Assembly (NCBI GenBank): GCA_963760125.1
Contig: CAVXBV010000002.1
Location: 109,244-173,243, forward strand
DNA from: an uncultured Actinomycetota bacterium
GTDB taxonomy: Bacteria > Actinomycetota > Actinomycetes > Mycobacteriales > SCTD01
Direction: 5' to 3'
DNA length: 64,000 nucleotides
The notes under the pieces were generated by a model. The model searched no databases. It had not been told where the DNA came from and saw only the letters and a list, made by a program, of their open reading frames with translations. Below are positions 19,641-59,650 of this stretch, one piece after another. Both the position numbers and the translations under genes were made by a program. The number at the start of each line of letters is the position of its first letter. Positions within the stretch are counted from its first letter, which is position 1.

Positions 19641-19713
19641 TCAGCAGACGACGCTCAACGCCGGGACGCGCTCGGCCCGATCACCGAGGCGAGCTGGGTC
19701 CGGCCAGCGGTGC

Positions 19714-20196: not shown

Positions 20197-20387
20197 GTGG
20201 TGGTCCTCTCGCCGACCCCCAGACTACCACGGCAGCGGCAGGTCCTGACAGGTCCGCGACCGGTAAAGGCGCAGGTCAGAGGCCCTGTCCGTGATCCACA
20301 GCGTGCAAGCGGGCTCTTGACAGGAGGGCCTGCCCATGCCCTCGCCCCCCTGACGGACGATGCACCGGGCAGGGCAGACTCGCGCGC

Positions 20388-21044
20388 ATGACCCTGCTCC
20401 GCTGGTTGGTGCTGGCCTCTCACGCCGGGCCCACGGCCGCGATGACCAGCCTGGCCGTCGCGCTCGGCGCCGGGTCCGGTCCCGGTCGCAGCCTCGCCCT
20501 CGGAGCGGCCGTCCTGGCCGGCCAGCTCTCCGTCGGCTGGAGCAACGACTGGGTGGATGCCGGCCGCGACCGGCAGGTCGCCCGCGCCGACAAGCCGGTG
20601 GTGCAGGGCCTGCCGGTGCCCGTCCTGCGGCGTGCCGCGCTGCTCGCGCTGACCGCCTGCGTCCCGCTGAGCCTCGCGCTCGGGCTGCGCGCCGGGGCGG
20701 CGCACCTGGTCGCCGTGGCGAGCGCCTGGGCCTACAACGCGGGGCTCAAGTCCACCCCGTGGTCCCTCGCGCCGTACGTCGTGGCGTTCGCCCTGCTGCC
20801 GAGCGTGGTGACCCTCACGGGTCCGGCCGGCGCGGCGGCGCCCGCCTGGGCCACCACGGCGGGGGTGCTCCTGGGGATCGGCGTCCACGGGCTGAACGTG
20901 CTGCCCGACCTCGAGGAGGACCGCGCCACCGGCGTCCGGGGGCTGCCGCACCGCCTGGGCCGTCGTCGTACGGCCGTCCTGTCCGTGTCCTCGCTCGTGG
21001 CCGCAGCTTTCGTCGTGCTGCTGCTGGGCAGCCCCCTGACCTGA
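20388..21044 (+). CDS. UbiA-family prenyltransferase, short form (218 aa)
   Basis: Asp-rich motifs NDWVDAGRD and LPDLEEDRATG, with about 6-7 TM helices. Confidence 0.7.
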   Translation: MTLLRWLVLASHAGPTAAMTSLAVALGAGSGPGRSLALGAAVLAGQLSVGWSNDWVDAGRDRQVARADKPVVQGLPVPVLRRAALLALTACVPLSLALGLRAGAAHLVAVASAWAYNAGLKSTPWSLAPYVVAFALLPSVVTLTGPAGAAAPAWATTAGVLLGIGVHGLNVLPDLEEDRATGVRGLPHRLGRRRTAVLSVSSLVAAAFVVLLLGSPLT

Positions 21045-25479: not shown

Positions 25480-26876
25480 CGGACCTCCTGCTCGGGCGCC
25501 CGCGCCAGCGAGCGGCACAGCTGCACCAGCTCCCGCACGCTACGCCCTCCGAGCTCCTCGGCGGTCGCATCACCAGGCTGCAGCCCCAGGGTGTCCGCAG
25601 CAGCGGCGTACGCCGCGGACGACGGCCGGCCCAGTCGGGCGAGCACACCGGCGAGCAGGAACTGCGCGAAGCCCCTGGTCGGCTCGAGGTAGACCGCCTT
25701 GCGCAGGTCGACCAGTGCGTCCTCGTCGCGCCCGGCCGAGACCAGCGCCAGCGCCCGCAGGTAGTAGGCGTCGGCCCGCCCCGGATCGATCGCGGTCGCG
25801 TCGCCGGCGGCCTGGGCCGCCTGCTCGTAGAGCCCTGCCGCGAGGGACGCTCGCGCCTTGACCAGCAGGTGGTCGGGACTGGTCACCCGCCCCTCGTCCG
25901 TGCGCCCCTCGCCCCGACGCGCCTCGTCCCGACGGGGCTGGACCCGCCGTTCCGGCGCCGGCGGCGGAGGTCCCTCGTCCTCGGTACGGCGGTCGGGCAG
26001 AATCGTGCGGCGCTCAGGGGCCTGGTCCGGGGCGGGGTCGAGACGGCGGTAGACGAACGTGGCGCTGTCGCCGGTGCCCAGCGACACCAGGCGGAAGTCC
26101 TCGCTGATCTGCCAGAGCGTCTCGGCGTGACCGAGGAACAGGTAGCCCCCGTCGCGCAGGCTGTGGTGCAGCCGCATCATCAGCGCCCGGGTCGTCTCGC
26201 GGGCGAAGTAGATCGTGACGTTGCGGCACAGGACGAGGTCGATGCGCTCGCTGGGCGGGAACGGGACCGCCTCGGTGACCAGGTTGTGGTGCCGGAACTC
26301 CACCAGGTCCCGTACCTCCTGCCGCACCTCCACGCCGCCCTCCGGGGTGGGCACGAAGAAGCGGCCGAGCTGCTCCGGCGTCGCGAGCGCCACCGCGCGG
26401 GCGCCGTACCTGCCGACCTTGGCCGCCGCCAGCGCGCGGGTGGAGACGTCGGTGGCGAGCACCTTGACGTCCCAGCCGTCGGTGCTCGGCAGCAGCTCGC
26501 GCAGCGCCATCGCCAGGCCGTAGGGCTCTTCGCCCGTGGAGCACCCGGCGCTCCAGATGCGCAGCCGCTTGCCGTTGGCCTCCGCGTGCCGGAGCAGCTC
26601 CGGCAGCACGTGCGTGCGCAGCACCCGGGTCTGCGGGGGGTTGCGGAAGAAGTGGGTCTCCTGGATGGTGACCTCGTTGAGCAGGGCCTGGCGCTCCCCG
26701 ACGTCGGAGAGCAGACCGAGGTAGGTCGCGACGTCCGGTGCCCCGGTCGCACGCAGCCGCTCTCCCACTGAGTACGACATCGACTGCAGCCGGCTGTCGT
26801 CGAACACCAGCCCGGCGGCCTGCGACAGCAGCGAGCGCAGCGCCTCGAACTCCGGCCGCGCGAGCTGCAGGCTCAT
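25476..26876 (-). CDS. cheR: CheR-type protein-glutamate O-methyltransferase with C-terminal TPR domain
   Basis: ETHFFRNP, RIWSAGCSTGEEPYGLAMAL, DLVLCRNVTIYF, then a charged linker and TPR repeats (ADAYYLRALALVSAGRDEDALVDLRKAVYLEP). Confidence 0.9.
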   Translation of the reverse strand: MSLQLARPEFEALRSLLSQAAGLVFDDSRLQSMSYSVGERLRATGAPDVATYLGLLSDVGERQALLNEVTIQETHFFRNPPQTRVLRTHVLPELLRHAEANGKRLRIWSAGCSTGEEPYGLAMALRELLPSTDGWDVKVLATDVSTRALAAAKVGRYGARAVALATPEQLGRFFVPTPEGGVEVRQEVRDLVEFRHHNLVTEAVPFPPSERIDLVLCRNVTIYFARETTRALMMRLHHSLRDGGYLFLGHAETLWQISEDFRLVSLGTGDSATFVYRRLDPAPDQAPERRTILPDRRTEDEGPPPPAPERRVQPRRDEARRGEGRTDEGRVTSPDHLLVKARASLAAGLYEQAAQAAGDATAIDPGRADAYYLRALALVSAGRDEDALVDLRKAVYLEPTRGFAQFLLAGVLARLGRPSSAAYAAAADTLGLQPGDATAEELGGRSVRELVQLCRSLARAPEQEVR

Positions 26877-28015
26877 GTCCGACCGACCAGCGCCAGCAGG
26901 GCCCCCGCGATCTGCGTGATCGGCAGCTGCTGCCCCACGGCGCCCGTCACCCAGGCGACCTGCGGCATGCCGTAGACCGTGCTCGTGAGCTCGTCCTGGC
27001 CAAGGGTCGCCGCGCCGCGGTCCCGCATCGCCTTGAGGCCGGCGGCACCGTCGCGTCCCATGCCGGTCAGGAGCACACCGACGGCGTCCGGCCCGAGGGC
27101 GCTCGCGATGCTGGAGAAGCACTGGTCGATGCCCGGCACGTGGAACTGACCGGCCTCCGGCGGGACGCAGACGGTCCGCAGCCGGGCGTCCTGGACGAGC
27201 AGGTTCTGACCGCTCGGCGCGATCGTCACGGTGCCGGGCTCGAGCCGTCTCCCGGACGCCCCGACGACGACCGGCAGGGGCACCAGGTCGTTGAGCCAGC
27301 TGGCCAGGCCGGGGATGAAGCCCTCGGCCATGTGCTGGACGACGAGCACGGCCTGGGTGAGGTCGGCGGGCAGTCCCCCCAACACGGTCTGCAGGGCCTG
27401 AGGTCCCCCTGTCGAGGCGCCGATCGCCAGCAGCTTCACCCCTGGGTGCACCGGGTCCTGGACCGACGGAGGGCCGGCCGGCTGGGGCACCGCCGCGGAG
27501 TCCTGGTCCACCACGGGGGACGGAGCCACGGCTCGGTCGGTGTCGTGCACCCGGCCCCGCGGGTGGGTGATGACTCGGACCCGGGCGGCGACCCGGATGC
27601 GGCGTCGCAGCTGGTCGGCGTAGTCGTCGAGCGTCCCCACGTGGTCGGGGCTCGGCTTGGCCATGACGTCGACGGCGCCGGCAGCGAGAGCCTCGAGGGC
27701 GTTGTCGCTCTCCGTGCCGGTCACGTGGGCGCTGAAGACGACGATCGGTCTCGGGCTGCCGGCCATGATCCGCTCGATCGCCTCGAGCCCCCCCATGACC
27801 GGGAGGTCGAGGTCCATCAGCACGACGGTCGGCTGGAGGCGTCGGACGAGGGCCACGCCCTCCTTGCCGTTGCGCGCTTCGCCCACCACGGTCATCGAAG
27901 GGTCGGAGTCGATGACACCGCGCAGGAACCGGCGCTGCACGGGAGAGTCGTCCACGACGACCACCGAGGTCGGGGGGACGGGGACCACGGTCTCCAGCGA
28001 GACGGACTGCGTCAT
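26873..28015 (-). CDS. cheB: CheB-type response regulator / protein-glutamate methylesterase
   Basis: REC domain (VVVVDDSP...VVLMDLDLPVMGG) plus esterase triad context (IGASTGGPQAL, VVQHMAEGF, LLTGMGRDGAAGL). Confidence 0.92.
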   Translation of the reverse strand: MTQSVSLETVVPVPPTSVVVVDDSPVQRRFLRGVIDSDPSMTVVGEARNGKEGVALVRRLQPTVVLMDLDLPVMGGLEAIERIMAGSPRPIVVFSAHVTGTESDNALEALAAGAVDVMAKPSPDHVGTLDDYADQLRRRIRVAARVRVITHPRGRVHDTDRAVAPSPVVDQDSAAVPQPAGPPSVQDPVHPGVKLLAIGASTGGPQALQTVLGGLPADLTQAVLVVQHMAEGFIPGLASWLNDLVPLPVVVGASGRRLEPGTVTIAPSGQNLLVQDARLRTVCVPPEAGQFHVPGIDQCFSSIASALGPDAVGVLLTGMGRDGAAGLKAMRDRGAATLGQDELTSTVYGMPQVAWVTGAVGQQLPITQIAGALLALVGRT

Positions 28016-29966: not shown

Positions 29967-30319
29967 GCGAGCATCGTGCGGATCGTCGCGACCAGGTCGA
30001 CCAGGTGGTCCTTGCGGAGGTAGCCGTCGATCGACGGCTCGCGGACGGCCGACTCGGCCAGGTCCAACGCGGTGCACAGCAGGACGACGACGGAGGGGGC
30101 GGCCGCCTTCATCGTGGGAGCCGCCTGCAGCCCGGTCATCGCGCCCTCGAGCTGGTTGTCCAGCAGCACCAGGTCGGGCTGCTCGGCGCGCACCAGGGCA
30201 ATCCCGTCTTCGGCGCTGACGGCGCTCCCGACCAGCTCGAGGTCGGGCTCGGTGGACAGCAAGATCTCCACGACGGCGCGGATCATCGCGTCGTCCTCCA
30301 CCAGCACCACACGGGTCAC
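29948..30319 (-). CDS. Stand-alone receiver (CheY-like) response regulator, 123 aa
   Basis: VVLVEDD...DLVLLDNQL...VVLLCTA...GYLRKD (the DD / D / T / K set). GTG overlaps the kinase stop codon (GTGA). The 3' end overlaps the mutY 3' end by 19 nt. Confidence 0.85.
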   Translation of the reverse strand: MTRVVLVEDDAMIRAVVEILLSTEPDLELVGSAVSAEDGIALVRAEQPDLVLLDNQLEGAMTGLQAAPTMKAAAPSVVVLLCTALDLAESAVREPSIDGYLRKDHLVDLVATIRTMLAHPGSA

Positions 30320-31887
30320 TCGGGCACCGTAGCCGGGAACGTCACCCAGAAGGTCGCGCCCTCGCCGACCCGTGAGCTCACGCCCAGCGTGCCGCCGTGG
30401 GCCACCACGAGTCGCTTCACGATCGACAGGCCGAGGCCGAACCCGGGGACCTGCCGAGCCCGTGAGCTGTCGGTGCGGGTCCACCGCTCGAACAACGCCG
30501 CCTGCTCGGCCTCGGCGATGCCCGGTCCCTCGTCCCGCACGTCGAGGCGCACCTGGCCACCCTCGGCGCGCACGCTCACCACCACGGGGCGATCCGGCGC
30601 CCCGTGCTTGACGGCGTTGCCCACCAGGTTGTCCAGGACCTCGCGCACCATCTCCGGGTCCCCCGCGAGCACCTGCGGACTGCCCGCCTCGCGCACGATG
30701 TCCACGGCGTCCTTGCCGGCCACCGCCTCGACGTCGCGTCGGACGGCCTCCAGCAAGCCGTCGATCTCCACCACCTGCCAGCGGGGCAGCACACCGGCCA
30801 GCGCGTGGCGCTCGTCGACCAGCAGGCGCTCCGCGAACGACTCGATGCGCGCGAAGGAGTGCGTGATCCCTTCCAGCGCCGCGCGGATCTGCTCGGGCGT
30901 CAGCTGGTCGAGCTTGCCGTGCAGGAGCTGGGCGTAGCCCTTGCCCGCGCCCAGCGGCGTCCTGATGTCGTGACGGGCCGTGTCGACAATCTCTTGCCGG
31001 AGCAGCTCCTCCTCGCGGGCGCGCTCTGCCTGCTGCGCCCAGCGGACCGCCGCCCCGACGTGCGCCGCGAGGTCGACCAGCAGCTGCTCGTCGACCTCGT
31101 CGAACGCCCGCTCGCCCGGGCTGTTCGCCACGGCCAGCTCACCGAGGACCTGCGTACCCCCCAGGATCGGCACGGCGAGCAGCGGCCCGATCGGCGGGTG
31201 GACCCCCGGCAGTCCGACACCTGCCGGGTGGCCCCGGATGTCGTCGAGGCGCGCCGGGACCCGCGACGTGACCGGCACGGCCAGCAGACCGACCATGCGG
31301 GGGTTGCGCTGCGGAAAAAGGTGTCGCGGGGCGTCGTACACGAAGTGGCTGATCTCGGTCGGCGACCCGGGCCGCAGCAGGACGAGGGCGCTGTACGCCG
31401 CACCGGTGAGCTGCTTGGCCTCGGTCGCGAGCACCTGGAGGACGGAGGCGACGGACGGGGGCTCGCCGAGCAGCGACCGGCCGAGCTCGGCGATGCGCCG
31501 CAGGCCCTCGGCGTGGCGGACGGCCGTCGTGACGTCGCGCAGGATGATCGCCTGCAGCGGACCGATGTCGCGGCGCAGCACATCGACGACCCCCAGCGGT
31601 CGGAGGTCGAGCCGGGTCATCCCCTCGGTGGGCAGGGCCAGCAGCGCGTCGAGGTCGACGATCTCGCCGACCGCCGCGCCCTCGACGCCGAACATCAGAT
31701 TCGCCGCGGGGTTGGTGACCAGCACCTGCCCGTCAGCAAGAACGACGACCGCGTCCGGGGTGGCCTCGAACAGCTCCCCGATCGCCCCCGCCATGATCGG
31801 GCTCGGCGCCTCCGGTGCCGCGGGGGTCGGGGCTACCGGAGGGGACGTGCTGTCGTCCCCGGGAGCCATGGAGGGGACGCTACCCAC
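30316..31887 (-). CDS. Cytoplasmic PAS-GAF sensor histidine kinase (HisKA + HATPase_c)
   Basis: PAS (ATPDAVVVLADGQVLVTNPAANLMFG), GAF (...GELAVANSPGERAFDEVDEQLL), H-box ARHDIRTPL, N/G boxes NLVGNAVKH and GFGLGLSIV. No TM helices. Start is GTG 31887 or ATG 31869. Confidence 0.88.
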   Translation of the reverse strand: MGSVPSMAPGDDSTSPPVAPTPAAPEAPSPIMAGAIGELFEATPDAVVVLADGQVLVTNPAANLMFGVEGAAVGEIVDLDALLALPTEGMTRLDLRPLGVVDVLRRDIGPLQAIILRDVTTAVRHAEGLRRIAELGRSLLGEPPSVASVLQVLATEAKQLTGAAYSALVLLRPGSPTEISHFVYDAPRHLFPQRNPRMVGLLAVPVTSRVPARLDDIRGHPAGVGLPGVHPPIGPLLAVPILGGTQVLGELAVANSPGERAFDEVDEQLLVDLAAHVGAAVRWAQQAERAREEELLRQEIVDTARHDIRTPLGAGKGYAQLLHGKLDQLTPEQIRAALEGITHSFARIESFAERLLVDERHALAGVLPRWQVVEIDGLLEAVRRDVEAVAGKDAVDIVREAGSPQVLAGDPEMVREVLDNLVGNAVKHGAPDRPVVVSVRAEGGQVRLDVRDEGPGIAEAEQAALFERWTRTDSSRARQVPGFGLGLSIVKRLVVAHGGTLGVSSRVGEGATFWVTFPATVPE

Positions 31888-35164: not shown

Positions 35165-37477
35165 TCAAGAATGCGCGGAAGTCCGCACTTCCTGCTTTTC
35201 CCACCGCCGGGTGAGCTCCTCAGGGGGGAGCGCCGCGGCGTACAGGAAGCCCTGCCCGAGGCGGCAGCCCAGCTCGCGCAGCCGGGCAGCCTGGGCCGGC
35301 AGCTCGATGCCCTCGGCGACGACGTCGAGGTCGAGCGCCTCCGCCAGGGTCATGACCGCCGCGGCCAGGGCCCCCTGCCGTGCCCCGAGGTGGAGGTCCT
35401 GCACGAAGCACCGGTCGATCTTGACGATGTCGACCGGGATCTTCTGCAGGTAGCCCAGGGCGGAGTAGCCCGTGCCGAAGTCGTCGAGGGCGATCCGGAC
35501 CCCGAGCTCGCGGAGGGCGGCCAGGCGCGGGCCGATGCTCACCACGTCCCCCATGAGGACCGTCTCGGTGATCTCGAGGACGAGGCACGAGGGATCGAGG
35601 CCGGTGTCACGCAGGGCCTCCCGGACGACGTCGACCAGGTCTCCGTCGGCCAGCTGCACGGCGGAGAGGTTGACCGAGAGGGTGAGCCGGCCGGTGAGGT
35701 TCCACGTGGCGGCGTGCGCGCAGGCCGTGCGCAGCACCTGCCGACCCAGGTGACCGACGAGCCCGCTCTCCTCAGCCAGCGGGACGAACACGCCGGGCGA
35801 GACCGCCACACCGTCCTTGGTCCACCGGGCCAGGGCCTCCACGCCGGTCAGCCGACCGGTCCCGAGGTCCACGATCGGCTGGAACCACGGCCGGATGTCA
35901 CCGGCGAGCAGCGCCTGGCGCAGGTCGGCCTCCAGCGCGACCCGGGCGAGCAGCTCGTCGCGCATCGAGGGCACGAACACGCAGAGCTGGTCCTTGCCGG
36001 CGTCCTTGGCGGCGTACATCGCGACGTCGGCGTTGCGCAGCAGCGCCTCGGGGGTGTCGCCCGGGGCGGAGAGCACCAGTCCGACGCTGCCGGTGAGCGC
36101 GAGGGTGCGGGCCCCCAGATCGACCGGGACCGTGAGGGTCTGCAGGATCTGGTGACCGAGCTGCCAGGCGTCGCGCTCGGTCACCGGTCCCGGGAGGAGG
36201 AAGGCGAACTCGTCGCCCCCCAGGCGGGCCGGGAGGACGCCGGCCGGGAGGCCGTGGGACAGCCGGTGGCCGAGGACTTCCAGCAGGCGGTCTCCGGCGT
36301 CGTGACCGAGGCTGTCGTTGACCTGCTTGAAGCCGTCGAGGTCCAGCAGCGCCACGACGACCGGGCCCGCCAGGAGCTCGCTGGCCATGCGGTCGAACAA
36401 CCGGGCGCGGTTGGGCAGGCCGGTCAGCGAGTCCGTCCACGCCTGCGCCTGCAGCCGCTCCGTCGTCCGCGAGAGCTCCCGGGTGCGCTCGGCGACCGTG
36501 ACCTCCAGCCCGCGGGACAGCCGGCTGTTCTCGGCGAGCGCGAGTCCTTGACGCAGCAGCACCGACGCGAAGATCACGAAGCCGAGCCCACGGCTGACGT
36601 CGTCGGTCCCCTTCTCGCGGAGCGCGTCGTTGATCGCCAGCGCCGCCAGCAGGACCAGCGGCACGAACGGGAGGGCGGCACGCCAACCGGTCGGCGGCCG
36701 CTCGGGGACGTCGACCCGGGCCGCACCCCGGTCGAGGTGGGCACCGAGCGCCAGGAAGACGAACCCCACACCCCAGGCAGCATCGATCGGGTTGCCCGGC
36801 TGCCAGCTGCCGCTCTGGGCCAGCAGCCCGTAGACAGTGTGGCCGACCGCACCGGACGCCAGGCACGCCGCGACCCACGCGAGCGGGCGGTCGGTGGCGC
36901 TCCGGGCGCGCAGCCCCACGAGCACCAGCAGGGTCAGCACGACGACGTCGAGGGCCGGGTACGCCAGGCCGAGGAGCTGAGCCAGGCCGGGGGCACCCGC
37001 GGCGGCGTACGCGTCGCCGAGGGCGAGCCGCCAGGAGACCGCGAGCAGGGAGGCGCCGACGAGGATGCCGTCGGCGACGAGGCGCAGGAGCCCGAACGCG
37101 GGCCGGGGAGCGCTGGGGTGCATGAGCAGGGCGGCGAGCAGGAACGGGACGCAGGCGACGTACCCGACGTCCGGGAGGCCGGGGAACGGGACGGCGGTCC
37201 CGACGACGAGCTCGTACCAGCACCAGGCGACCTGGCCGAGGGCCCACGTGCCGGCGAAGGCAGCGAACAGCGCCCAGCTGCTCCGCGCCCGGCCCTGGCA
37301 GCGGCGCGCGGCCCCCAGACACAGGCCCGAGGCCACGAGCGGGGCGATCAGGTTGCCGAGGTCATCGACCCAGATCGCCGTACGGCTCCCGGTGTGGAAG
37401 GTGACGACCACGAGGTAGGTCACGGACCAGAGGAGGGCAGCGAGCAGCACGCGACGGCGACCCGGGACACGCTGCAT
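35165..37477 (-). CDS. Membrane-bound GGDEF-EAL protein (diguanylate cyclase/phosphodiesterase) with a ~330-aa polytopic N-terminal domain
   Basis: About 10 TM helices, then RLGGDEFAFLL and the EAL core (LVLEITETVL, ALDDFGTGYSALGYL, VKIDRCFV). Start is at the internal ATG 37477, downstream of the lysS stop codon. Confidence 0.88.
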   Translation of the reverse strand: MQRVPGRRRVLLAALLWSVTYLVVVTFHTGSRTAIWVDDLGNLIAPLVASGLCLGAARRCQGRARSSWALFAAFAGTWALGQVAWCWYELVVGTAVPFPGLPDVGYVACVPFLLAALLMHPSAPRPAFGLLRLVADGILVGASLLAVSWRLALGDAYAAAGAPGLAQLLGLAYPALDVVVLTLLVLVGLRARSATDRPLAWVAACLASGAVGHTVYGLLAQSGSWQPGNPIDAAWGVGFVFLALGAHLDRGAARVDVPERPPTGWRAALPFVPLVLLAALAINDALREKGTDDVSRGLGFVIFASVLLRQGLALAENSRLSRGLEVTVAERTRELSRTTERLQAQAWTDSLTGLPNRARLFDRMASELLAGPVVVALLDLDGFKQVNDSLGHDAGDRLLEVLGHRLSHGLPAGVLPARLGGDEFAFLLPGPVTERDAWQLGHQILQTLTVPVDLGARTLALTGSVGLVLSAPGDTPEALLRNADVAMYAAKDAGKDQLCVFVPSMRDELLARVALEADLRQALLAGDIRPWFQPIVDLGTGRLTGVEALARWTKDGVAVSPGVFVPLAEESGLVGHLGRQVLRTACAHAATWNLTGRLTLSVNLSAVQLADGDLVDVVREALRDTGLDPSCLVLEITETVLMGDVVSIGPRLAALRELGVRIALDDFGTGYSALGYLQKIPVDIVKIDRCFVQDLHLGARQGALAAAVMTLAEALDLDVVAEGIELPAQAARLRELGCRLGQGFLYAAALPPEELTRRWEKQEVRTSAHS

Positions 37478-37514
37478 GCCTTCCCATCGGCAGGTCGTGG
37501 TCGTTCGTGAAGCC

Positions 37515-39029
37515 TCAGCCGGGGCGTAGGAGGGGGAACAGCACGACCTCACGGGCGGGCAGCCCTGTGAGCAGCATGACGAGGCGGTCCAGGCCCATGC
37601 CCTGTCCGCCCATGGGGGGAGCGCCGTGCTCCAGAGCGCGCAGGAAGTCCTCGTCGAGCTGCATCGCCTCGGGATCGCCGGCCGCCGCCTTGAGCGACTG
37701 CGCGGTGAGCCGACGCCGCTGCTCGACCGGGTCGACGAGCTCGGAGTAGCCCGTCGCCAGCTCGACACCGCCGATGACGAGGTCCCACGCCTCGGCCAAC
37801 CGCGGGTCGTCGCGGTGGCCACGAGCCAGCGGACGGGCGTCGACGGGGTAGTCCTTGACGAAGGTGGGCTGGATCAGCGTGTGCTCGACCAGCTTCTCGA
37901 ACAGCTCGAGGGCGATCTCCCCCGCCGACCAGCCAGGCTGCAACGCGACGTCGTGCGCGTCCGCGAGGGTGGTGAGGGTCCCCGCGTCGGTACCGGCGTC
38001 GACCGTCGTGCCGGTGGCCTCGCTGACGAGCTCGAAGAGCGTCGCGGTCCGCCACGGCTGCTCGAGGTCGACCTGACCCTCGCACACGACGGTCCGTCCG
38101 ACGACGCGCGCGCAGGCCAGGATCATCTCGCGCGTCAGGTCCGCGACGGTGTCGTAGTCGCCGTACGCCTCGTAGAACTCGAGCATCGTGAACTCGGGCA
38201 GATGGGTGGCGTCCATGCCCTCGTTGCGGAAGTTCTTGCCGATCTCGAAGACCCGGTCGAGTCCGCCGACGACCGCACGCTTGAGGTAGAGCTCGAGGGC
38301 GATGCGCAGCGTCATGTCGAGGTCGAGCGCGTTGAGGTGGGTGCGGAACGGCCGGGCCGCGGCGCCGCCGTGCATCATCTGCAGCGTGGGCGTCTCGATC
38401 TCGATGTAGTCGCCGTCCTGCAGCACCTGCCGGACCGTCGCGATGATGCGCGACCGGTCGCGGAACAGCTGCCGGCTGTCGGCGTTCACGGCGAGGTCGA
38501 CGTAGCGCTGCCTCACGCGCGCCTCAGGGTCGACGAGGCCCTTGTGCTTGTCGGGCAGCGGACGCAACGCCTTGCTGGTGAGCAGCCAGTCGGTCGCGAG
38601 GACGCTGAGCTCGCCGCGCTTGCTGGTGATGACCTCGCCGGTGATGCCGACGTGGTCGCCGAGGTCGACGTCGGACTTCCAGGCCGCGAGCCGCTCCTCC
38701 CCGACGCCGGCGAGGCTGATCATCACCTGCAGGGTGGCCTCACCCTCGGTGAGGGTGGCGAAGCAGAGCTTGCCGCCGGTCCGGCTGAGCAGGACCCGCC
38801 CGGTGATGCCGACCGTCTCACCGGTCTGGGTGTCCTCGGGAAGCCCCTGGTGCGTGGCGCGCACGTCCGCAAGGCTCGTGGTCCGGGGGTAGCCGAGGGC
38901 GTACGGCGGGGTGCCCGCCGCGACCAGCCGGTCGTACTTCTCGCGCCGGATCCGCACCTGCTCCGGCAGTTCGGCCTCGAAGGCCTGCTGGGGGCTGGTG
39001 TCCGCGCTCTGGTCGGGGGTCTGGCTCAC
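37515..39029 (-). CDS. lysS: Lysine--tRNA ligase (class II)
   Basis: OB-fold N-domain and class II motifs (FRNEGMDATHLPEFTMLE, ...GGQGMGLDRLVMLL). Confidence 0.95.
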   Translation of the reverse strand: MSQTPDQSADTSPQQAFEAELPEQVRIRREKYDRLVAAGTPPYALGYPRTTSLADVRATHQGLPEDTQTGETVGITGRVLLSRTGGKLCFATLTEGEATLQVMISLAGVGEERLAAWKSDVDLGDHVGITGEVITSKRGELSVLATDWLLTSKALRPLPDKHKGLVDPEARVRQRYVDLAVNADSRQLFRDRSRIIATVRQVLQDGDYIEIETPTLQMMHGGAAARPFRTHLNALDLDMTLRIALELYLKRAVVGGLDRVFEIGKNFRNEGMDATHLPEFTMLEFYEAYGDYDTVADLTREMILACARVVGRTVVCEGQVDLEQPWRTATLFELVSEATGTTVDAGTDAGTLTTLADAHDVALQPGWSAGEIALELFEKLVEHTLIQPTFVKDYPVDARPLARGHRDDPRLAEAWDLVIGGVELATGYSELVDPVEQRRRLTAQSLKAAAGDPEAMQLDEDFLRALEHGAPPMGGQGMGLDRLVMLLTGLPAREVVLFPLLRPG

Positions 39030-44635: not shown

Positions 44636-45097
44636 TCAACCGATCAGGTCGTACCCGCCCTGGGTGGGGTCGGCCCGTCCTCCCTGCCCGTCAGCAGGCA
44701 GGATCGTCTGCGTGCACCGACTGCTCGCCAGCAGGCGCTCCTCGGCGTCGAACAGCTCGGCGCTGCAGAAGGCCAGGCGACTGGTCCGCTTGACCACCAC
44801 GCCGCGTGCCGTCAGCGGCCCGGGTCGGGTGGCCCGGTAGAACTCGACCCGCAGGTCCGCGGTGAGGAACACCTCCCCGGGCTTCAGGGTCGACCAGCAG
44901 GCCGCCCCCATTGCCGAGTCGAGCAGCGTGGTCACCATGCCGCCGTGGATGACCTGACCGGACGCCGTGGGGAAGCCGTACTCCCTGGTGGCCGTGCAGG
45001 TCAGCACCGACCGGCCGCCGCCCCGTTCCACGATCTGCATGCCGAGCGTCGCTCCGATGTGGACCCCGTCGTACTCCGTCTCCGTCACGAGGGGCAT
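44636..45097 (-). CDS. PaaI/hotdog-fold thioesterase family protein
   Basis: ...GQVIHGGMVTTLLDSAMGAA...LTADLRVEFYRA..., 153 aa. Confidence 0.7.
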   Translation of the reverse strand: MPLVTETEYDGVHIGATLGMQIVERGGGRSVLTCTATREYGFPTASGQVIHGGMVTTLLDSAMGAACWSTLKPGEVFLTADLRVEFYRATRPGPLTARGVVVKRTSRLAFCSAELFDAEERLLASSRCTQTILPADGQGGRADPTQGGYDLIG

Positions 45098-45995
45098 GCT
45101 CGCACCCGTGGCTGGTCGGGCGTGGGGGGAGGCGTGGCAGGACGCGCTCTACGGCTCCTCGGGCTTCTTCCGGCGGGAGGACCCGGCCGATCACTTCCGC
45201 ACCAACGCGGCCGTGCCGCTGTTCGCCGAGGCGGTCCGGGCGCTGGCCGAGCGGGTGGACGAGGCGCTCGGCTTCCCGGACCCGTTCGACGTGGTCGATG
45301 TCGGTGCGGGACGGGGCGGACTGCTGCGCGCCCTGGGCGAGGTGCCGGCCCGCTGGCGTCTCACCGGGGTCGACGTGGCCGACGCTGACGTGCCGTTCAC
45401 CTGGCGGCACCAGATCCCCGCAGTGACAGGCCTTCTGCTGGCCAACGAGTGGCTCGACGCGATCCCGCTGGACGTGCTGGAGGACGGCCGGCTGGTCTTG
45501 GTGGACCAGGAGGGCACCGAGTCCCTCGGTGCTCGGTCGACGTCCGGGTGGGCCGCGACGTGGTGGCCGGCGGGCGGTCGCGTCGAGGTCGGAGCGCCCC
45601 GGGACCTCGCTTGGGCCGCTGCCGTCGCGCGTCTGCGGCAGGGGGCTGCCGTGGCGATCGACTACGACCACGACCTGTCGGCCCGCAGGCCGACGCTCAC
45701 GGGCTACCTCCACGGCCGGCAGGTCCCCCCGGTGCCGGACGGGTCGTGCGACCTCACCGCGCACGTCGCCCTCGACTCCTGCAGGGCGGCCGGCGGCGGC
45801 GTGGTGATCCGGCAACGAGCGGCCCTGGCAGCACTCGGGATCAGCGCGCGCCTCCCCTCGCCCAGCGATCCGTCGTACGCCGTGGCGCTGGAGCGGGCGT
45901 CGCAGGCGCGCGAGCTGCTGGACCCCGACGCCCTGGGGGGCTTCGGCTGGCTGGTCCACGGCGTCGGCGTGGACCTTGGTTGGATGACCGGATGA
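45096..45995 (+). CDS. MidA / NDUFAF7-family (DUF185) SAM-dependent methyltransferase
   Basis: ALYGSSGFF...HFRT..., [15 protein letters not shown] and [17 protein letters not shown] are family hallmarks. Start is ATG 45096 or GTG 45108. Confidence 0.75.
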
Positions 45996-47068
45996 GGACG
46001 GTGATCGCCGGCATCGGCGCCGCGGCGCTCCCGCGCTCCGACCTCATGCTCGAGCTCGGCCCGCACCACCCGTCCACCCACGGCTCGCTGCGCCTGCGGC
46101 TCGACCTGGACGGCGACGTCGTGGTGGCCGCGGAGCCGCTCATCGGTGCCCTGCACCGGGGGGCGGAGAAGCTCTTCGAGGCGCGCGACTACCGCCAGGT
46201 GCTCGTGCTCGCCAACCGGCACGACTGGCTCGCGGCGTTCAACAACGAGGTCGGCGTCGCGCTGGCCGTCGAGCACCTGCTGGGCATGGAGGTCCCGGCG
46301 CGCGCGACGTGGCTGCGCACCACCTTGTGCGAGCTGAACCGGGTGCTGTCCCACCTGATGTTCCTCGGCCACCTGGACGTCGAGTTCGTCCGGCTGCGGG
46401 AGCGGCTGCAGCACGTGATGGAGTCAGCCACGGGCGGTCGCCTCCACTACGTCGCCACGCGCATCGGCGGGCTGCTCGAGGACGTGCCCGAGGGGTGGGT
46501 CGGCGACGTCGCCTCCGCGGTGGCGGCGGTGCGTGCGGGCCTGCCCTCGCCGGACCTCTCGCCCTGCACCGGGCTGGGGGTGCTGTCCCGCGACGACGCG
46601 CTGGCGTACGGCGTGAGCGGGCCGGTGGGTCGCGGCTCCGGCCTGGACCTGGACCTGCGGCGTGACGACCCCTACCTGTCCTACGCGGCGCTGGACGTTG
46701 CCGTGGTGACGCGCACCGACGGCGATGCCGCGGCGCGGTTCGCGTGCCTGCTCGAGCAGGTGCACGTCTCGCTCGACCTGGTGCTTGCCTGCGTGGACGC
46801 GCTGCCGTCCGGGCCGGTCAACGTCAAGCTGCCCAAGAACCTCCGGGCGCCCGAGGGCTCGACGTACGCGTGGACGGAGAACCCGTCCGGAATCGCCGGC
46901 TACCTGCTGGTCTCCCGTGGGGCAGTGACGCCGTGGCGCCTGGCGATGCGGACCGCGTCGTTCAACAACGTGTCAGCGCTGCCGGCCGTCCTCCCAGGGA
47001 CGCGCCTGCAGGACGTCGCGACGGTGCTGGCGTCGTTCTTCTTCGTGGTCGGCGACATCGACCGCTAG
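45992..47068 (+). CDS. Orphan NuoD / NDUFS2-like protein (complex I 49-kDa subunit family), shortened (358 aa)
   Basis: [29 protein letters not shown], ...[15 protein letters not shown]..., and C-terminal [13 protein letters not shown] overlap with the methyltransferase stop codon. No other nuo genes are nearby. Confidence 0.8.
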
Positions 47069-47082: not shown

Positions 47083-47349
47083 TCAGGAGGACAGGTACTG
47101 CACGAACCGGGCCCGCAGCAGGGGCTCGTCGTCGCCGAGGTCCTTGCCCATGAGCTCCCGCACGATCTCGACCGCGTCGGTGATGGACCCGGTGAGCCCG
47201 CCGCCGGACCCGTCCTCGGCCGCGAAGGACGCGGTGGCCCGCAGGTGCTTCACGAGGTCCCAGAAGAAGCCGACGTCGTGCGCGTCCCGCGCTTTGTCGA
47301 ACGCCCGCTGGCGCAGGTCCTCGGTGGTCAGCGCGTCGAAGTCCGTCAT
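47083..47349 (-). CDS. Small acidic hypothetical protein (88 aa)
   Basis: High-GC3 ORF with an ATGA overlap with the upstream DUF3180 gene. I did not recognise a family. Confidence 0.5.
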   Translation of the reverse strand: MTDFDALTTEDLRQRAFDKARDAHDVGFFWDLVKHLRATASFAAEDGSGGGLTGSITDAVEIVRELMGKDLGDDEPLLRARFVQYLSS

Positions 47350-58112: not shown

Positions 58113-58496
58113 GTGAGCGAGAAGGTCTGCGCCGAGGTGCGCACCAACCTCCCGGCGTACGTCGACCGGTCCCTGGACCCCCTACGCCGGCGGCTGCTGG
58201 CGCTGCACCTGAGGCGGTGCTCGACCTGCCAGGCGGAGTTCAGCGCCCAGCGCGACCTCGCCGCGAGCCTTGCGTCCCTCGCTGGGCGAGGCGAGACGCC
58301 ACCGGAGGGGTTGCTCGAGCAGCTGCTGGAGCAGTCAGGATCCCCTCGCGGAGCCACCCCGCTGCGTGGCGCCGTGAGCGGGGCCCGACCGATCCTGTCG
58401 GTGGCTCTGCTCGCTGCCGGCGCAGCGTCGGCGGCCGGGGCCGGCTACGCCTCGTGGCTGTCCGCCAAGCACCTGCGCCGCCGCCTGCGTCGCTGA
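58113..58496 (+). CDS. Zinc-finger (zf-HC2 type) anti-sigma factor with a C-terminal TM helix
   Basis: C-x22-H-x3-C-x2-C (CAEVRTNL...LALHLRRCSTCQAEF). It starts 4 nt after the sigma stop codon. Confidence 0.8.
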   Translation: MSEKVCAEVRTNLPAYVDRSLDPLRRRLLALHLRRCSTCQAEFSAQRDLAASLASLAGRGETPPEGLLEQLLEQSGSPRGATPLRGAVSGARPILSVALLAAGAASAAGAGYASWLSAKHLRRRLRR

Positions 58497-58522
58497 CCCT
58501 CCGCCGGGTAAGGGCCCCCTCG

Positions 58523-59650
58523 ATGACCACCACGGAGCAGACCCCGGGCCGCGCTGACGTGCTGCGCGCCACGGTGACGCCTCTGGCCTCGATCTTCGGT
58601 TCGGGGTTCCTCATCCTCGTGCCGATCCTGGCCCGGTCGCTGGGCCGCTGGTCCGCCCTCGGCATGGCCGCCGTGTGCGCCCTGGCCTGGTGCCTCGGGA
58701 ACGCCGTGCGTCACAACGTGCGGACGGTGGAGGGGCAGGACCTCGGTGTTGCCGTCCGGCGGTTGGAGCGGGCGTCGGACCTGACGATCGTCGTGGCCTA
58801 CGTCATCTCGGTTGCGCTCTACCTGCGGATCCTGGCGCAGTTCGTCGTGGGCTACGCCGGGGGGTCGCTCGGTGCGCAGAAGGTGCTGGCCGTCGCGGTG
58901 GTCGCCGTCATCACCGCGGTGGGCCTGGTACGCGGGCTGCACGGGCTGGAGGTGCTCGAGCGGTTAGCCCTGGCAGTGGTCATCGTCATCGTGCTCGTGC
59001 TGCTCGTGACGTTTGCGGTGCGCGACCTCTCGTTGTTGGTCGGTGACGGGGTGACGCTGACGCGGGCGCACGACGGCGTGGGCGGGGCGCTGCTGGTGCT
59101 GGGCGGCATCGTCATCACCGTGCAGGGCTTCGAGACGATCCGCTACCAGCCCGACGTCGATGCGGATGTCCGGGTGGCGGCGAGCCGGCTGGCGCAGCTC
59201 GTGGCGACCGGGGTGTACATCGCGCTGGTGGGACTGGCGACACCGCTGATGTCGATCGCCGAGCAGGACGGCAACGCCGGGCAGCTGCTCACCTTCGTGC
59301 AGTCGGTGGCGCCGTGGCTCGCGCTGCCGCTGGTCGTGACCGCCGCGCTGAGCCAGTTCAGCGCTGCGACGGCGGACACCGAGGCAGGCAAGGGCAACCT
59401 GCAGGTCCTGCCCGTCAAGGCGCTGCACGGCAAGGCCGGGTACGTCGTCATCGGTCTCGCCGCGGCAGGGCTGGCGTCGTCGCTGAGTACGAGCGTCATC
59501 GTCGTGGTCGCCAGTCGGGCGTTCGCCGCCTACTACGCGCTCCAGTGCGCAGTGGCCACGGTTCCTTCGCAGGGGTGGCGACGAGCCGGGTTCATCGCGC
59601 TGGGGCTGGTGATGGTCGCCGTGACGGTGCTCGCCAAACCGGCCGGCTGA
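58523..59650 (+). CDS. Polytopic membrane protein (about 10-11 TM helices), unknown family (permease-like)
   Basis: 375 aa hydrophobic ORF, third gene of the sigma / anti-sigma unit. Confidence 0.6.
   Translation: MTTTEQTPGRADVLRATVTPLASIFGSGFLILVPILARSLGRWSALGMAAVCALAWCLGNAVRHNVRTVEGQDLGVAVRRLERASDLTIVVAYVISVALYLRILAQFVVGYAGGSLGAQKVLAVAVVAVITAVGLVRGLHGLEVLERLALAVVIVIVLVLLVTFAVRDLSLLVGDGVTLTRAHDGVGGALLVLGGIVITVQGFETIRYQPDVDADVRVAASRLAQLVATGVYIALVGLATPLMSIAEQDGNAGQLLTFVQSVAPWLALPLVVTAALSQFSAATADTEAGKGNLQVLPVKALHGKAGYVVIGLAAAGLASSLSTSVIVVVASRAFAAYYALQCAVATVPSQGWRRAGFIALGLVMVAVTVLAKPAG

Follow-up and report, generated by a model that had tools for sequence, protein, structure and literature searches.

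The window, by which we mean the whole 64-kb stretch of DNA that was analyzed from an uncultured Actinomycetota bacterium, carries on its plus strand two overlapping genes. By sequence and predicted structure, one encodes a short MidA/NDUFAF7-family methyltransferase, and the other encodes an orphan paralog of the complex I subunit NuoD/NDUFS2, here called NuoD2. The features of the pair and of its flanks are as follows.

44636-45097, minus strand: hotdog-fold thioesterase, divergent (TIGR00369, E = 3.6e-18); context only, outside the system
45096-45995, plus strand: MidA/NDUFAF7-family SAM-dependent methyltransferase, short form, 299 aa (PF02636, COG1565)
45291-45320, plus strand: SAM-binding motif; D68, G70, A71, G72, and G74 invariant in 41 homologs; aligns to IEIGPGRG of 1zkd
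45429-45467, plus strand: MidA family motif; G112, L113, L114, A116, N117, E118, L120, D121, and P124 invariant; aligns to ILANEYFDVLP of 1zkd
45750-45767, plus strand: MidA family motif DLTAHV; D219, T221, A222, H223, and V224 invariant
45992-45995, plus strand: ATGA stop/start overlap of the methyltransferase and NuoD2 genes (translational coupling), read in the sequence
45992-47068, plus strand: NuoD2, orphan NuoD/NDUFS2-fold paralog, 358 aa, with Arg/Trp/GD signature (PF00346)
46079-46081, plus strand: His30, equivalent by alignment of the quinone-ligand His in the beta1-beta2 loop (bovine H59, Thermus H38)
46154-46171, plus strand: HRGAEK loop, with R56 (46157-46159) equivalent by alignment to the dimethylated Arg85 of NDUFS2
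46220-46228, plus strand: H77-D78-W79, where Trp79 replaces by alignment the quinone-ligand Tyr (bovine Y108, Thermus Y87)
46445-46447, plus strand: His152, which in the alignment matches the His of mitochondrial RMH (r-l-h versus r-m-h of Drosophila NDUFS2)
47051-47065, plus strand: C-terminal GDIDR (GE.DR in canonical NuoD), where [NiFe] hydrogenases have their C-terminal Cys ligands
47083-47349, minus strand: conserved 88-aa acidic protein, convergent with NuoD2; context only

A sequence-only reading of this DNA had described a MidA/DUF185 gene whose TGA overlaps the ATG of a 358-aa NuoD-like gene, and the two ORFs, the overlap (TGA at 45993-45995, ATG at 45992-45994), and the motifs that it quoted, VGDIDR included, are all present. 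Upstream, the start codons of the thioesterase and methyltransferase genes overlap, and the thioesterase occupies the equal position at loci L001-L004, L014, and L030. The 88-aa acidic protein downstream had no Pfam or NCBIfam match, and tblastn found it at many loci with 40 to 82% identity, always between NuoD2 and DUF3180-folK. Each protein of the pair has thousands of homologs, with many source genomes apparently common to both match lists, and comparison with the closest relative indicated purifying selection on both genes (dN/dS, 0.14 to 0.20).

The methyltransferase matched PF02636 (Methyltransf_28) with 45.6 bits (E = 7.8e-12; curated cutoff, 23.3 bits), the match covering residues 96 to 232 alone. 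A profile built from its 41 homologs matched 1zkd (E = 1.3e-9), 4f3n (E = 2.4e-9), and 5ztz, the Dictyostelium MidA (E = 7.5e-5). Judged against these homologs and against 1zkd and 4f3n, the protein has all three sequence hallmarks of the family, namely, SAM-binding GxGxG, ANE(F/W)xDAxP, and D(L/I)TAHV, the last aligning to DLTAHVDFD of 1zkd and DITAHVEF of 4f3n. The AF2 model (pLDDT, 92.3) has the seven-beta-strand methyltransferase core with the MidA-specific extensions, and its best six Foldseek matches in the PDB were all COG1565/MidA proteins (4g67, 4f3n, 5ztz/5zu0, and 1zkd; E = 1e-17 to 1e-14), the seventh match being at E = 1e-4. The query-normalized TM scores were 0.72 to 0.77, and those normalized to the targets were just 0.58 to 0.62. 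The length is below the usual 390 to 430 aa or so of MidA, since the 299-aa protein is about 90 to 130 aa shorter than the solved homologs (387 aa in 1zkd, 432 aa in 4f3n, and 414 aa in 5ztz). The profiles and the predicted structure confirm 45096-45995 as encoding a short but genuine MidA/NDUFAF7-family methyltransferase.

NuoD2 matched PF00346 (Complex1_49kDa) at E = 2.4e-51, so that both families named in the sequence-only reading, PF02636 and PF00346, were recovered, and the profile and fold searches keep the second protein in the NuoD family. The AF2 model of NuoD2 (pLDDT, 86.8; pTM, 0.90) superposed on complex I 49-kDa/NuoD/NdhH chains with query-normalized TM scores of 0.81 to 0.85, and the Foldseek alignments gave 28 to 33% identity to solved canonical NuoDs. 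It nonetheless fell below the curated cutoff of every NCBIfam NuoD equivalog model (NF004739, 291.9 versus 360; TIGR01962, 282.1 versus 459; NF008974, 280.7 versus 522) and of the FpoD model (220 versus 600). In a neighbor-joining tree, NuoD2 belongs to a large and monophyletic clade of actinobacterial paralogs, with long branches inside the clade. Its conservation is comparable to that of the neighboring panC and folP at equal evolutionary distances. Matches to [NiFe] hydrogenase large subunits were marginal (E = 0.0065 in Pfam; 23.8 bits to 1e3d). Assignment to that family was rejected, with PF00374 scoring 15.9 bits against a cutoff of 25.8 and no Cys found in HRGAEK or VVGDIDR; NuoD2 shares the fold of group 4 and other hydrogenase large subunits but has no Cys at the four metal-ligand positions. 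We take HRGAEK to correspond to the N-terminal RxCGxC of these hydrogenases and GDIDR to their C-terminal DPCxxC.

The protein had also been called shortened, and at 358 aa it is indeed some 50 aa below the 409 aa of Thermus Nqo4, but most of this difference is not special to it, because the 26-aa SMESLIHHFKL segment that it lacks is an insertion restricted to long canonical NuoDs and is also missing from short NuoDs and from the NuoDs of 11-subunit operons. Against the 366-aa NuoD (NF008974) and 372-aa FpoD models, NuoD2 aligns over the full length without a break; it has the short architecture also seen in the short canonical NuoDs sampled, while scoring far under the cutoffs of both models. 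The losses that are particular to the orphan clade are those of the N terminus, of the loop after HLxFLG (the Q-cavity loop, LxxGAxxPxF, which is deleted or shortened), and of the NxIxxxRT segment.

Residues were counted in 76 representatives of the orphan clade, 75 of which cover the Arg site, and in 36 canonical NuoDs. R56 of HRGAEK aligns with the Arg of GLLHRGTEK in solved NuoD/NDUFS2 chains, and the HRGxEK Arg is present in 75 of the 75 representatives covering the site, in keeping with the proposal of the sequence-only reading that the NDUFAF7 target is retained. H55, R56, and E59 are invariant in a 50-sequence alignment and occur in 73, 75, and 76 of the 76 representatives, respectively. 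Residues 53 to 59, which form the Arg loop, are the sole segment of the model with a pLDDT below 50, a value that would fit a loop ordered only by a partner. Thr occupies the Arg site in the canonical NuoD of Mycobacterium smegmatis, the only actinobacterium whose complex I structure has been solved, and likewise in that of Thermus. It had likewise been noted that the quinone-binding Tyr of DRLDY/RMDY reads NRHDW, and W79 does align to this Tyr; the position is Trp in all 76 clade members versus Tyr in all 36 canonical NuoDs, and His77 is found in 74/76 clade members. His30 is kept in the NuoD2 of the window and in 47 clade representatives (lost in 29/76), compared with 36/36 canonical NuoDs. 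The NuoD2 protein therefore has the HRGxEK loop of a NuoD but not the quinone-ligand combination of Tyr and His, the Tyr being Trp and the His being variable in the clade. His152 is invariant (76/76); the His of RMH with which it aligns is presumably the redox-Bohr His beside cluster N2 (Yarrowia H226). At the C terminus, GD is found in every clade member (76/76), while the position of Asp355 is Glu in 30/36 canonical NuoDs. The invariant elements are those that face cluster N2, that is, the His-Arg-x-x-Glu core of HRGxEK, His152, and the C-terminal GD.D[RK].

Across 80 species genomes, MidA lay within 10 kb of NuoD2 in 72 and directly upstream of it in 36, 21 of the latter with a stop/start overlap; a 4-bp ATGA/GTGA overlap was found in 19/80. 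Linkage extended over Frankiales-like metagenome-assembled genomes, Streptomyces, Kitasatospora, Micromonosporaceae, and Intrasporangiaceae, and the same pair occurs in a marine lineage, so the adjacency that had been seen in the one sequence is kept across several actinobacterial orders. The pair sits within a very stable housekeeping block (panC-DUF2520 ... DUF3180-folK-folB-folP-ftsH), and because of this the linkage is in part inherited synteny. In Streptosporangiales the two genes are 2.8 to 7.3 kb apart with opposite-strand genes (P450, bPH_2) between them, in four Streptomyces loci MidA is on the other strand, and in Propionibacteriales and two other lineages NuoD2 is in place with no MidA within 8 to 10 kb. 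A six-frame scan for NuoB, NuoH, and NuoI motifs and a Pfam search of 20 large ORFs found no further nuo gene in the 64-kb window, which bears out the earlier remark that none is adjacent, and none stands beside NuoD2 in 88 orphan-clade loci either.

MidA is also linked to NuoD in a second arrangement. Actinobacterial nuoABCDHIJKLMN operons whose NuoD carries the Arg/Trp/GD signature had a PF02636 gene directly downstream at every locus whose sequence extended far enough (16/16), and a MidA gene likewise follows the operon at L131, a high-GC locus. No MidA gene followed the operons with a Tyr-type NuoD (0/15), a contrast that reflects few related lineages and not 31 independent events. The signature of NuoD2 is common to P0295, L115, L123, L124, L128, and L131. 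The NuoD of the L131 operon is 44% identical to NuoD2 of the window (E = 1e-98), closer than any solved canonical NuoD, and the two MidA proteins are 33% identical. These operonic NuoDs are the closest nonorphan relatives of NuoD2, with which they share the HRG Arg, the Trp in place of Tyr, the GD.DR C terminus, and the short architecture without SMESLIHHFKL. They nevertheless form a separate clade in the neighbor-joining tree and retain the Q-cavity loop, the NxIxxxRT segment, and a longer N terminus. No Tyr-type representative sampled has lost the His ligand, and the Q-cavity loop is present in each of the eight canonical sequences compared. The operonic NuoD is encoded between nuoC and nuoH in an operon for an entire membrane complex, with MidA behind nuoN, whereas NuoD2 is an orphan with MidA in front of it; a PF02636 gene is linked to both. 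An independent operon arrangement with MidA behind a signature-bearing NuoD strengthens the idea of an enzyme-substrate pair.

In mitochondria, NDUFAF7 dimethylates Arg85 of NDUFS2 (PMC3829151), and the same Arg modification is found in Paracoccus Nqo4 (PMC3750175). This Arg is 3.7 Å from cluster N2 and is required for the cluster, and in Thermus an arginine of NuoB fills the position (PMC8042128). The function of bacterial MidA has been described as inferred only in silico, and a Wolbachia MidA expressed in Escherichia coli was reported to methylate DNA (PMC12455994). The pair of the window is like NDUFAF7/NDUFS2 and the Paracoccus system in the family, fold, SAM motif, and family motifs of the methyltransferase and in the context of the target, the HRGxEK Arg of a NuoD-fold protein, which in complex I stands beside N2. 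It differs in that its genes are physically linked, and often translationally coupled in the clade, and in that the presumed substrate is an orphan paralog with Trp for the quinone Tyr rather than the canonical subunit. Its host is an actinobacterium, neither a proteobacterium nor a mitochondrion. To our knowledge, methylation data on bacterial MidA are limited to the Paracoccus observation.

The pair had been thought uncharacterized, but parts of it have appeared in print. Streptomyces has been described as having a nuo2 operon that lacks nuoC and nuoD, together with a separate nuoD2 (PMC8388888, PMC9239103); the function of nuo2 was called unclear, with the speculation that its products may join those of the canonical operon in a hybrid machinery (PMC9239103). 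An NDUFAF7 gene behind the actinobacterial 11-subunit nuo operon, which is heliorhodopsin linked in "Candidatus Actinomarina," was noted in a preprint (10.1101/2021.02.01.429150), where it was read as an accessory gene and the NuoD residues were not analyzed. One NuoD2 clade member is a "subunit D-related protein" in its NCBI record. The partial nuo2 operon comprises nuoA2, B2, H2, I2, K2, L2, M2, and N2, and, like NuoD2 of the window, nuoD2 is a NuoD-family gene apart from all other nuo genes. Clade members occupy the same panC...folP block in Streptomyces (L008, L035, L048, and others), and we infer that the nuoD2 of the literature is this orphan clade. The Streptomyces papers merely list nuoD2 as an extra copy and mention neither its MidA neighbor, nor the Trp/Arg signature, nor nuoD2 as a missing D subunit.

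The reading that we prefer, to which we give slightly less than an even chance, is that MidA and NuoD2 are an enzyme and its substrate and that NuoD2 is a detached, partly degenerate D subunit of a complex I-like enzyme without an NADH module. NuoD2, a protein of the 49-kDa type, would descend from the D subunit of actinomycetotal 11-subunit enzymes without that module. Because Arg56 is present in 75/75 representatives while the solved mycobacterial canonical NuoD has Thr, NuoD2 is the obvious NuoD-type target in these organisms, and we infer that the MidA-like enzyme acts on newly made NuoD2, methylating Arg56 within its flexible HRGAEK loop. The product, by analogy with NDUFAF7, would be symmetric dimethyl-arginine. 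Methylated NuoD2 would then dock onto a NuoB-type Fe-S subunit from another locus of the genome, for which the nuo2 operon, without nuoC and nuoD, is the candidate source in Streptomyces, and methyl-Arg and His152 would come to adjoin the terminal Fe-S cluster. The substrate pocket is probably not a normal quinone site, since the Tyr has become Trp, the deleted loop is the one that ordinarily bears the Asp pairing with the ligand His, and a third of the family no longer has this His. That nuo2 is reported to lack nuoC as well, and not just nuoD, counts against this partner, and the orphan-specific loop deletions could mean that NuoD2 no longer fits a membrane complex. The sequence-only reading had proposed much the same pairing. 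The conserved adjacency, the Arg, and the second operon arrangement support this part of it, and neither of the outcomes that it had named as refuting on sequence grounds was seen, while no result backs its further suggestion that the pair is ancestral to the mitochondrial step.

NuoD2 might instead be a stand-alone, repurposed NuoD-fold protein, serving NuoB-type Fe-S subunits as chaperone or assembly factor, or having a regulatory role, and with no place as a stoichiometric subunit in a membrane complex; MidA may still methylate it. The absence of any neighboring nuo gene from all 88 loci and the window, the variable His and constant Trp, the three deletions in segments that operonic Trp-type NuoDs retain, the long branches, and the persistence of NuoD2 without adjacent MidA in Propionibacteriales are all in its favor. 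We nonetheless hold it to be unlikely, since the invariant N2-facing residues are hard to explain without a NuoB-like partner, a free copy of a NuoD, which binds no cofactor, has no obvious chemistry, and conservation is on a par with that of the enzymes panC and folP. Under certain conditions NuoD2 might take the place of canonical NuoD in the 14-subunit complex I, with quinone reduction changed or off. This would accord with the speculated hybrid machinery (PMC9239103) and with a fold that superposes fully on canonical NuoD. Such an isoform is very unlikely given the low identity to solved canonical NuoDs and the missing N terminus and interface-region loops; moreover, if an actinobacterial NuoB Arg fills the site as in Thermus (PMC8042128), an Arg-bearing D subunit might clash with it.

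Two further explanations concern the neighborhood. The adjacency may be inherited synteny only, the methyltransferase having another substrate and NuoD2 being unmethylated: the entire panC-to-ftsH block is syntenic across Actinomycetota, in roughly half the genomes the operon is no longer intact, several lineages keep NuoD2 without a neighboring MidA, and the Wolbachia enzyme reportedly methylated DNA in E. coli (PMC12455994). This is decidedly unlikely, as MidA also stands right after nuoN in signature-NuoD operons, a wholly different neighborhood; stop/start overlaps recur in many genera; in 32 genomes, the insertion of other genes has left the pair on one strand and no more than 7.3 kb apart; and the sole demonstrated substrate of the family is this very NuoD/NDUFS2 Arg (PMC3829151). 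A role with the folate/pterin genes (folE-folP-folB-folK-DUF3180), the most constant neighbors of NuoD2, seems far-fetched. In most of the contexts examined, also where MidA is missing, NuoD2 lies beside a small ORF after which DUF3180-folK-folB-folP come, but NuoD2 is convergent with the fol genes and so is not cotranscribed with them, the block also holds unrelated housekeeping genes (panC, lysS, clpC, and ftsH), and no known chemistry joins a cofactor-less NuoD fold to pterin synthesis.

Returning to the enzyme-substrate reading, the gene pair points to an uncharacterized bacterial version of the mitochondrial assembly step. A role for NDUFAF7/MidA has been demonstrated only in mitochondria, and the MidA-NuoD2 pair, together with MidA at the end of signature-NuoD operons, is the clearest genomic-context evidence found here for a bacterial MidA acting on a NuoD-type protein, in a phylum outside the Proteobacteria. 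NuoD2 is a candidate to supply the D subunit that nuo2 of Streptomyces lacks, and its clade is a natural experiment on the quinone site, with the Tyr always Trp, the His dispensable, and the N2-facing residues fixed. A wider proposition, possible but rather doubtful, is that D subunits of actinomycetotal complex I-like enzymes without an NADH module undergo MidA-dependent Arg methylation as an old, nonproteobacterial trait, NuoD2 being either a D subunit encoded in trans that completes the enigmatic nuo2-type complexes, which lack a nuoD themselves, or a factor that depends on methyl-arginine and handles NuoB-type Fe-S subunits. With the genetics and proteomics of Streptomyces, these readings can be tested directly. 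If either proves true of NuoD2, the NDUFAF7 step would for the first time have a bacterial system open to genetics, and the proposal that this protein arginine methylation arose in proteobacteria would come into question.

The window (G+C content, ~72%) carries a standard actinobacterial housekeeping block, within which the MidA-like gene and NuoD2, the orphan NuoD/NDUFS2 paralog, are the two plus-strand genes between a thioesterase gene and an 88-aa ORF.

Gene order in the window
cysS, radA, and an HhH-GPD glycosylase gene, then clpC and lysS (by Pfam)
coaX, after the clpC-lysS group (by Pfam)
nadC-nadB-panD-panC, after coaX (by ORF translations)
DUF2520-type Rossmann gene, after panC (named by homology to the fetched locus L001)
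44636-45097, minus strand, hotdog thioesterase, divergent from the MidA-like gene
45096-45995, plus strand, MidA
45992-47068, plus strand, NuoD2
Downstream of NuoD2, minus strand, 88-aa ORF, DUF3180, folK, folB, folP, ftsH
tilS, beyond ftsH (by Pfam)

The sequence-only reading had described the two genes as translationally coupled, and their overlap was read directly from the sequence: the MidA-like gene ends in ...GWMTG-TGA, with the TGA at 45993-45995 and the NuoD2 ATG at 45992-45994. The protein motifs quoted for both genes were all found in the ORF translations, and the statement that no other nuo gene is nearby held for the whole 64 kb, as judged by scanning all six frames for NuoB, NuoH, and NuoI motifs and by Pfam searches of 20 large ORFs. 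The start codons of the thioesterase gene (minus strand) and the MidA-like gene (plus strand, 45096) overlap in a CATG palindrome at 45095-45098, so that there is no intergenic promoter space between them; the arrangement in locus L002 is identical. The 88-aa acidic protein (47083-47349, minus strand) matched no Pfam or NCBIfam family, and many Actinomycetota have a homolog of it (40 to 82% identity) between NuoD2 and DUF3180-folK. Its position is taken by an ORF of 93 to 98 aa in L085 and L089 and by an unrelated-looking ORF of 186 to 210 aa in the Propionibacteriales loci L082 and L087. Elsewhere in the window, ORFs of 418 aa (18339-19595, minus strand) and 477 aa (58217-59650, plus strand) had coding-like GC3 and no Pfam match at E values up to 1e-5, and genes for a CheB-type methylesterase response regulator (26873-28015), a GAF histidine kinase (30316-31887), and a GGDEF-EAL protein (35165-37822), all on the minus strand, were scattered through the otherwise housekeeping clpC-lysS region.

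Assignment of the upstream gene to the MidA/NDUFAF7 family was borne out by Pfam (PF02636, Methyltransf_28; 45.6 bits versus a cutoff of 23.3). The window MidA as a single sequence gave no phmmer match in the PDB at E values up to 0.1; a profile of 41 homologs matched 1zkd (DUF185; E = 1.3e-9), 4f3n (COG1565; E = 2.4e-9), and 5ztz (E = 7.5e-5), the last being the Dictyostelium "protein arginine methyltransferase NDUFAF7 homolog." The six best PDB matches found by Foldseek for the AlphaFold2 model (pLDDT, 92.3; pTM, 0.90) were exclusively MidA family members (E = 1e-17 to 1e-14; TMq, 0.72 to 0.77), and the seventh match had an E value of 1e-4. The SAM motif VDVGAGRG, [12 protein letters not shown], and DLTAHV were invariant in the family alignment, and all three aligned with the corresponding motifs of 1zkd and 4f3n. 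At 299 aa, versus 387 to 432 aa in the solved homologs, the window MidA is a genuine, if short, family member.

NuoD2 likewise belongs to the NuoD family by both sequence and fold, as had been proposed: it matched PF00346 (Complex1_49kDa; E = 2.4e-51), gave full-length alignments to the solved chains of NuoD, NDUFS2, and NdhH (best E = 1.5e-57), and yielded a model (pLDDT, 86.8; pTM, 0.90) that superposed on 49-kDa/NuoD subunits with TMq values of 0.81 to 0.85 (Foldseek). It scored under every curated NuoD equivalog cutoff (e.g., 292 bits versus 360). A [NiFe] hydrogenase identity was rejected because the Cys ligands are missing and scores were marginal. A NuoC-NuoD2 fusion was also considered for the longer clade members P0280, P0343, P0251, P0300, and P0317; Pfam returned PF00346 alone, and their extensions are therefore probably miscalled starts.

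When 1.84 billion representative proteins were scanned in full with HMMER and the matches were aligned and built into neighbor-joining (NJ) trees, the NuoD2 relatives formed a large monophyletic paralog clade outside nuo operons (the orphan clade). R56 of the window motif ALHRGAEK aligned with the dimethylated Arg of GLLHRGTEK, and the quinone-ligand Tyr of DRLDY aligned with W79 of NRHDW, both as the sequence-only reading had stated, while the quinone-ligand His aligned with H30. Arg56, Trp79, and His152 were invariant within the orphan clade. The column of D129, the Asp partner of the His ligand, falls within a deleted loop where the alignment is unreliable, and for this position only the loop deletion is given.

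Residues at key positions in 76 orphan-clade representatives and 36 canonical NuoDs
Methyl-Arg site (R56): orphan, Arg in 75/75 covering the site; canonical, Arg in 30, Thr in 6
Quinone-ligand Tyr (W79): orphan, Trp in 76/76; canonical, Tyr in 36/36
Residue before Asp-Trp (H77): orphan, His in 74/76; canonical, mostly Leu or Met
C-terminal Gly-Asp (G354-D355): orphan, GD in 76/76; canonical, Glu at 355 in 30/36
RMH-motif His (H152): orphan, His in 76/76; canonical, mostly not His
Quinone-ligand His (H30): orphan, His in 47/76; canonical, His in 36/36

The description of NuoD2 as shortened was only partly upheld. Relative to NuoD of Thermus and mitochondria, the largest gap in NuoD2 reflects an insertion of the long canonical type, a 26-aa SMESLIHHFKL segment that, among the NuoDs compared, occurs solely in the long canonical ones and is absent from the short canonical and operonic Trp-type proteins. 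The NCBIfam profiles of short NuoD (366 aa) and FpoD (372 aa) align with the window protein from one end to the other. Three losses are nonetheless specific to the orphan clade, namely, the N-terminal extension, the loop after HLxFLG (canonical LDxGAxTPxF), which carries the Asp partner of the ligand His, and the NxIxxxRT segment.

The closest public relative is L002, an uncultured Actinomycetota MAG (88% identity for NuoD2), followed by Frankiales MAGs (71 to 77%). Named members of the clade come from Actinomycetota only and include Frankiales and Mycobacteriales MAGs, Streptomyces, Kitasatospora, Actinomadura and other Streptosporangiales, Micromonosporaceae, Intrasporangiaceae, and Propionibacteriaceae; one NCBI record is titled "NADH-quinone oxidoreductase subunit D-related protein." Both MidA and NuoD2 are under purifying selection (dN/dS, 0.14 to 0.20 versus L002), and over longer distances NuoD2 is about as conserved as panC and folP. 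The possibility of a pseudogene was rejected because NuoD2 is intact in ~90 loci and dN/dS is below 1.

The linkage of the two genes was found to recur in other genomes. Scanning one genome per species yielded at least 598 confirmed relatives, and among the best 80 a MidA gene was detected in 72 loci by tblastn and a MidA HMM; of the 8 negative loci, 5 had <2.5 kb of upstream sequence.

Position of MidA relative to NuoD2 in the best 80 of at least 598 loci
Directly upstream, stop/start overlap: 21 loci
Directly upstream, gap of 3 to 163 bp: 15 loci
Upstream on the same strand, 0.6 to 7.3 kb distant: 32 loci
Opposite strand: 4 loci
Not found: 8 loci

The overlap was a 4-bp ATGA or GTGA in 19 of the 21 overlapping pairs. 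Separated pairs came mainly from Streptosporangiales, with cytochrome P450, bPH_2 membrane protein, and class V aminotransferase genes among those inserted; for example, opposite-strand genes for a P450 and a 774-aa bPH_2 membrane protein lie in the interval in L012 (6239-9784), and the interval in L062 (7139-9917) holds a P450 gene together with one for a class V aminotransferase. Where MidA was on the opposite strand, it was convergent just downstream of NuoD2 in two loci and divergent ~4.5 kb upstream in two. The pair also occurs on a 917-kb contig, in a relative with 66% identity, and on TARA marine scaffolds of 54% G+C. The 90%-identity cluster of the marine NuoD2 P0259 includes MidA proteins of 286 to 288 aa that are unrelated to NuoD2; since MidA (7122-7988) and NuoD2 (8001-9086) are separate genes in L085, the mixed cluster looks like a clustering artifact rather than a sign of fusion. 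The small ORF and DUF3180-folK-folB-folP are steadier neighbors of NuoD2 than MidA is. MidA was absent from the Propionibacteriales loci L082, L083, and L087, in which the upstream gene is lsr2 or an overlapping LacI-family gene, and likewise from L089, of one further lineage. The LacI-family regulator gene of L087 (7000-8004) overlaps the NuoD2 start by 4 bp at the usual place of MidA.

Linkage of MidA to a NuoD also occurs in a second, unrelated gene arrangement. Outside the orphan clade, the closest relative is P0295 (HRGYEK, NRIDW, GDVDR), encoded in a heliorhodopsin-linked nuoA-B-C-D-H-I-J-K-L operon; in "Ca. Actinomarina" an operon of this type is reported to be followed by NDUFAF7 (preprint 10.1101/2021.02.01.429150). 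We fetched 80 metagenomic loci with a P0295-type protein. In L099, a PF02636 gene (E = 9.2e-26) begins 6 bp after nuoN and is followed by an M48 peptidase gene; this gene order is shared by the high-GC L131 (PF02636, E = 5.9e-24).

Features of L099
5765-20470, region with the 11-subunit nuo operon, MidA, and the M48 peptidase gene; heliorhodopsin upstream of the operon
18581-19606, MidA, behind nuoN
19631-20470, M48 (HtpX-like) peptidase

Heliorhodopsin also lies upstream of the 11-subunit operon in L090 (3795-4598), and the L099 layout fits the description in the preprint (10.1101/2021.02.01.429150). With the MidA HMM, MidA was found right after nuoN in 16/16 Trp-type NuoD loci whose downstream sequence reached at least 9.4 kb and in 0/15 Tyr-type NuoD loci with flanks of comparable length, a contrast that does not represent 31 independent events, since the loci stem from few related lineages. 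The L131 NuoD and the window NuoD2 share 44% identity (E = 1e-98), with two gaps only, both at orphan-specific deletions, and the corresponding MidA proteins share 33%. In an NJ tree without support values, the operonic Trp-type NuoDs formed their own clade, intermediate between the orphan and canonical ones. In a 10.5-kb contig without membrane nuo genes, L091, genes at 3956-10341 encode NuoB, a NuoC-NuoD fusion with Trp for the quinone Tyr, an FrhB/ferredoxin-domain protein, and a FAD_binding_4/CCG-domain protein; this cluster may represent a soluble redox complex resembling the Q module.

Complex I assembly requires NDUFAF7, the enzyme responsible for symmetric dimethylation of NDUFS2 at Arg85 (PMC3829151). 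Nqo4 of Paracoccus denitrificans carries the same modification, and Thermus has Thr at this position (PMC3750175). The Arg lies 3.7 Å from cluster N2, which is lost when the Arg is mutated; in Thermus an Nqo6 Arg occupies the space, and the E. coli Arg is unmethylated (PMC8042128). The one solved actinobacterial complex I, from M. smegmatis (8e9g chain D; GYLHTGIEKN...TRMDYLSP), carries Thr at the methyl-Arg position and has retained the Tyr, so the canonical NuoD of this structure lacks the Arg. In Streptomyces, nuoA-N coexists with a nuo2 operon lacking nuoC to nuoG and with a separate nuoD2 (PMC8388888), and the function of nuo2 has been termed unclear (PMC9239103). Our literature searches found no paper connecting nuoD2 with MidA and nothing on SCO3391 or SCO3392.

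We favor, with moderate confidence, the prediction that MidA and NuoD2 are an enzyme-substrate pair in which MidA would methylate Arg56. Residues 53 to 59, which include Arg56, form the only low-confidence loop of the NuoD2 monomer model, which suggests that the site should be accessible before assembly. NuoD2 would then dock on a NuoB-type Fe-S subunit, bringing the methyl-Arg and His152 beside the cluster, and its partner may be a membrane complex of the 11-subunit type that lacks the NADH module and whose remaining genes lie elsewhere; in Streptomyces, Nuo2 is a candidate. Because of the Trp substitution, the Q-cavity loop deletion, and the dispensable His, the pocket would no longer perform standard quinone reduction and protonation. 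Taken as a whole, this model of methylation, docking, partner complex, and altered pocket is plausible but tentative.

A stand-alone NuoD2, acting outside any complex as a soluble assembly or regulatory protein, is rather unlikely; it would suit the orphan-specific deletions, the long branches, and the persistence of the gene where MidA is not adjacent, but without a NuoB-like partner the invariance of residues facing cluster N2 is hard to accommodate. Synteny could also account for the linkage, given a very stable gene block and operons that are broken, yet it leaves MidA behind nuoN of Trp-type NuoD operons unexplained, and we regard it as distinctly unlikely. NuoD2 as an alternative isoform of canonical complex I is possible, poorly supported, and quite improbable, and a folate-related role is hardly credible, since NuoD2 is convergent with those genes and no chemistry links them.

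The predicted MidA-NuoD2 pair is of a known kind, in which a MidA-type enzyme methylates an arginine of a NuoD-type subunit, and the orphan Trp-type NuoD paralog genetically coupled to a short MidA is a new, uncharacterized variant of it. This coupled variant spans a whole phylum outside the Proteobacteria.
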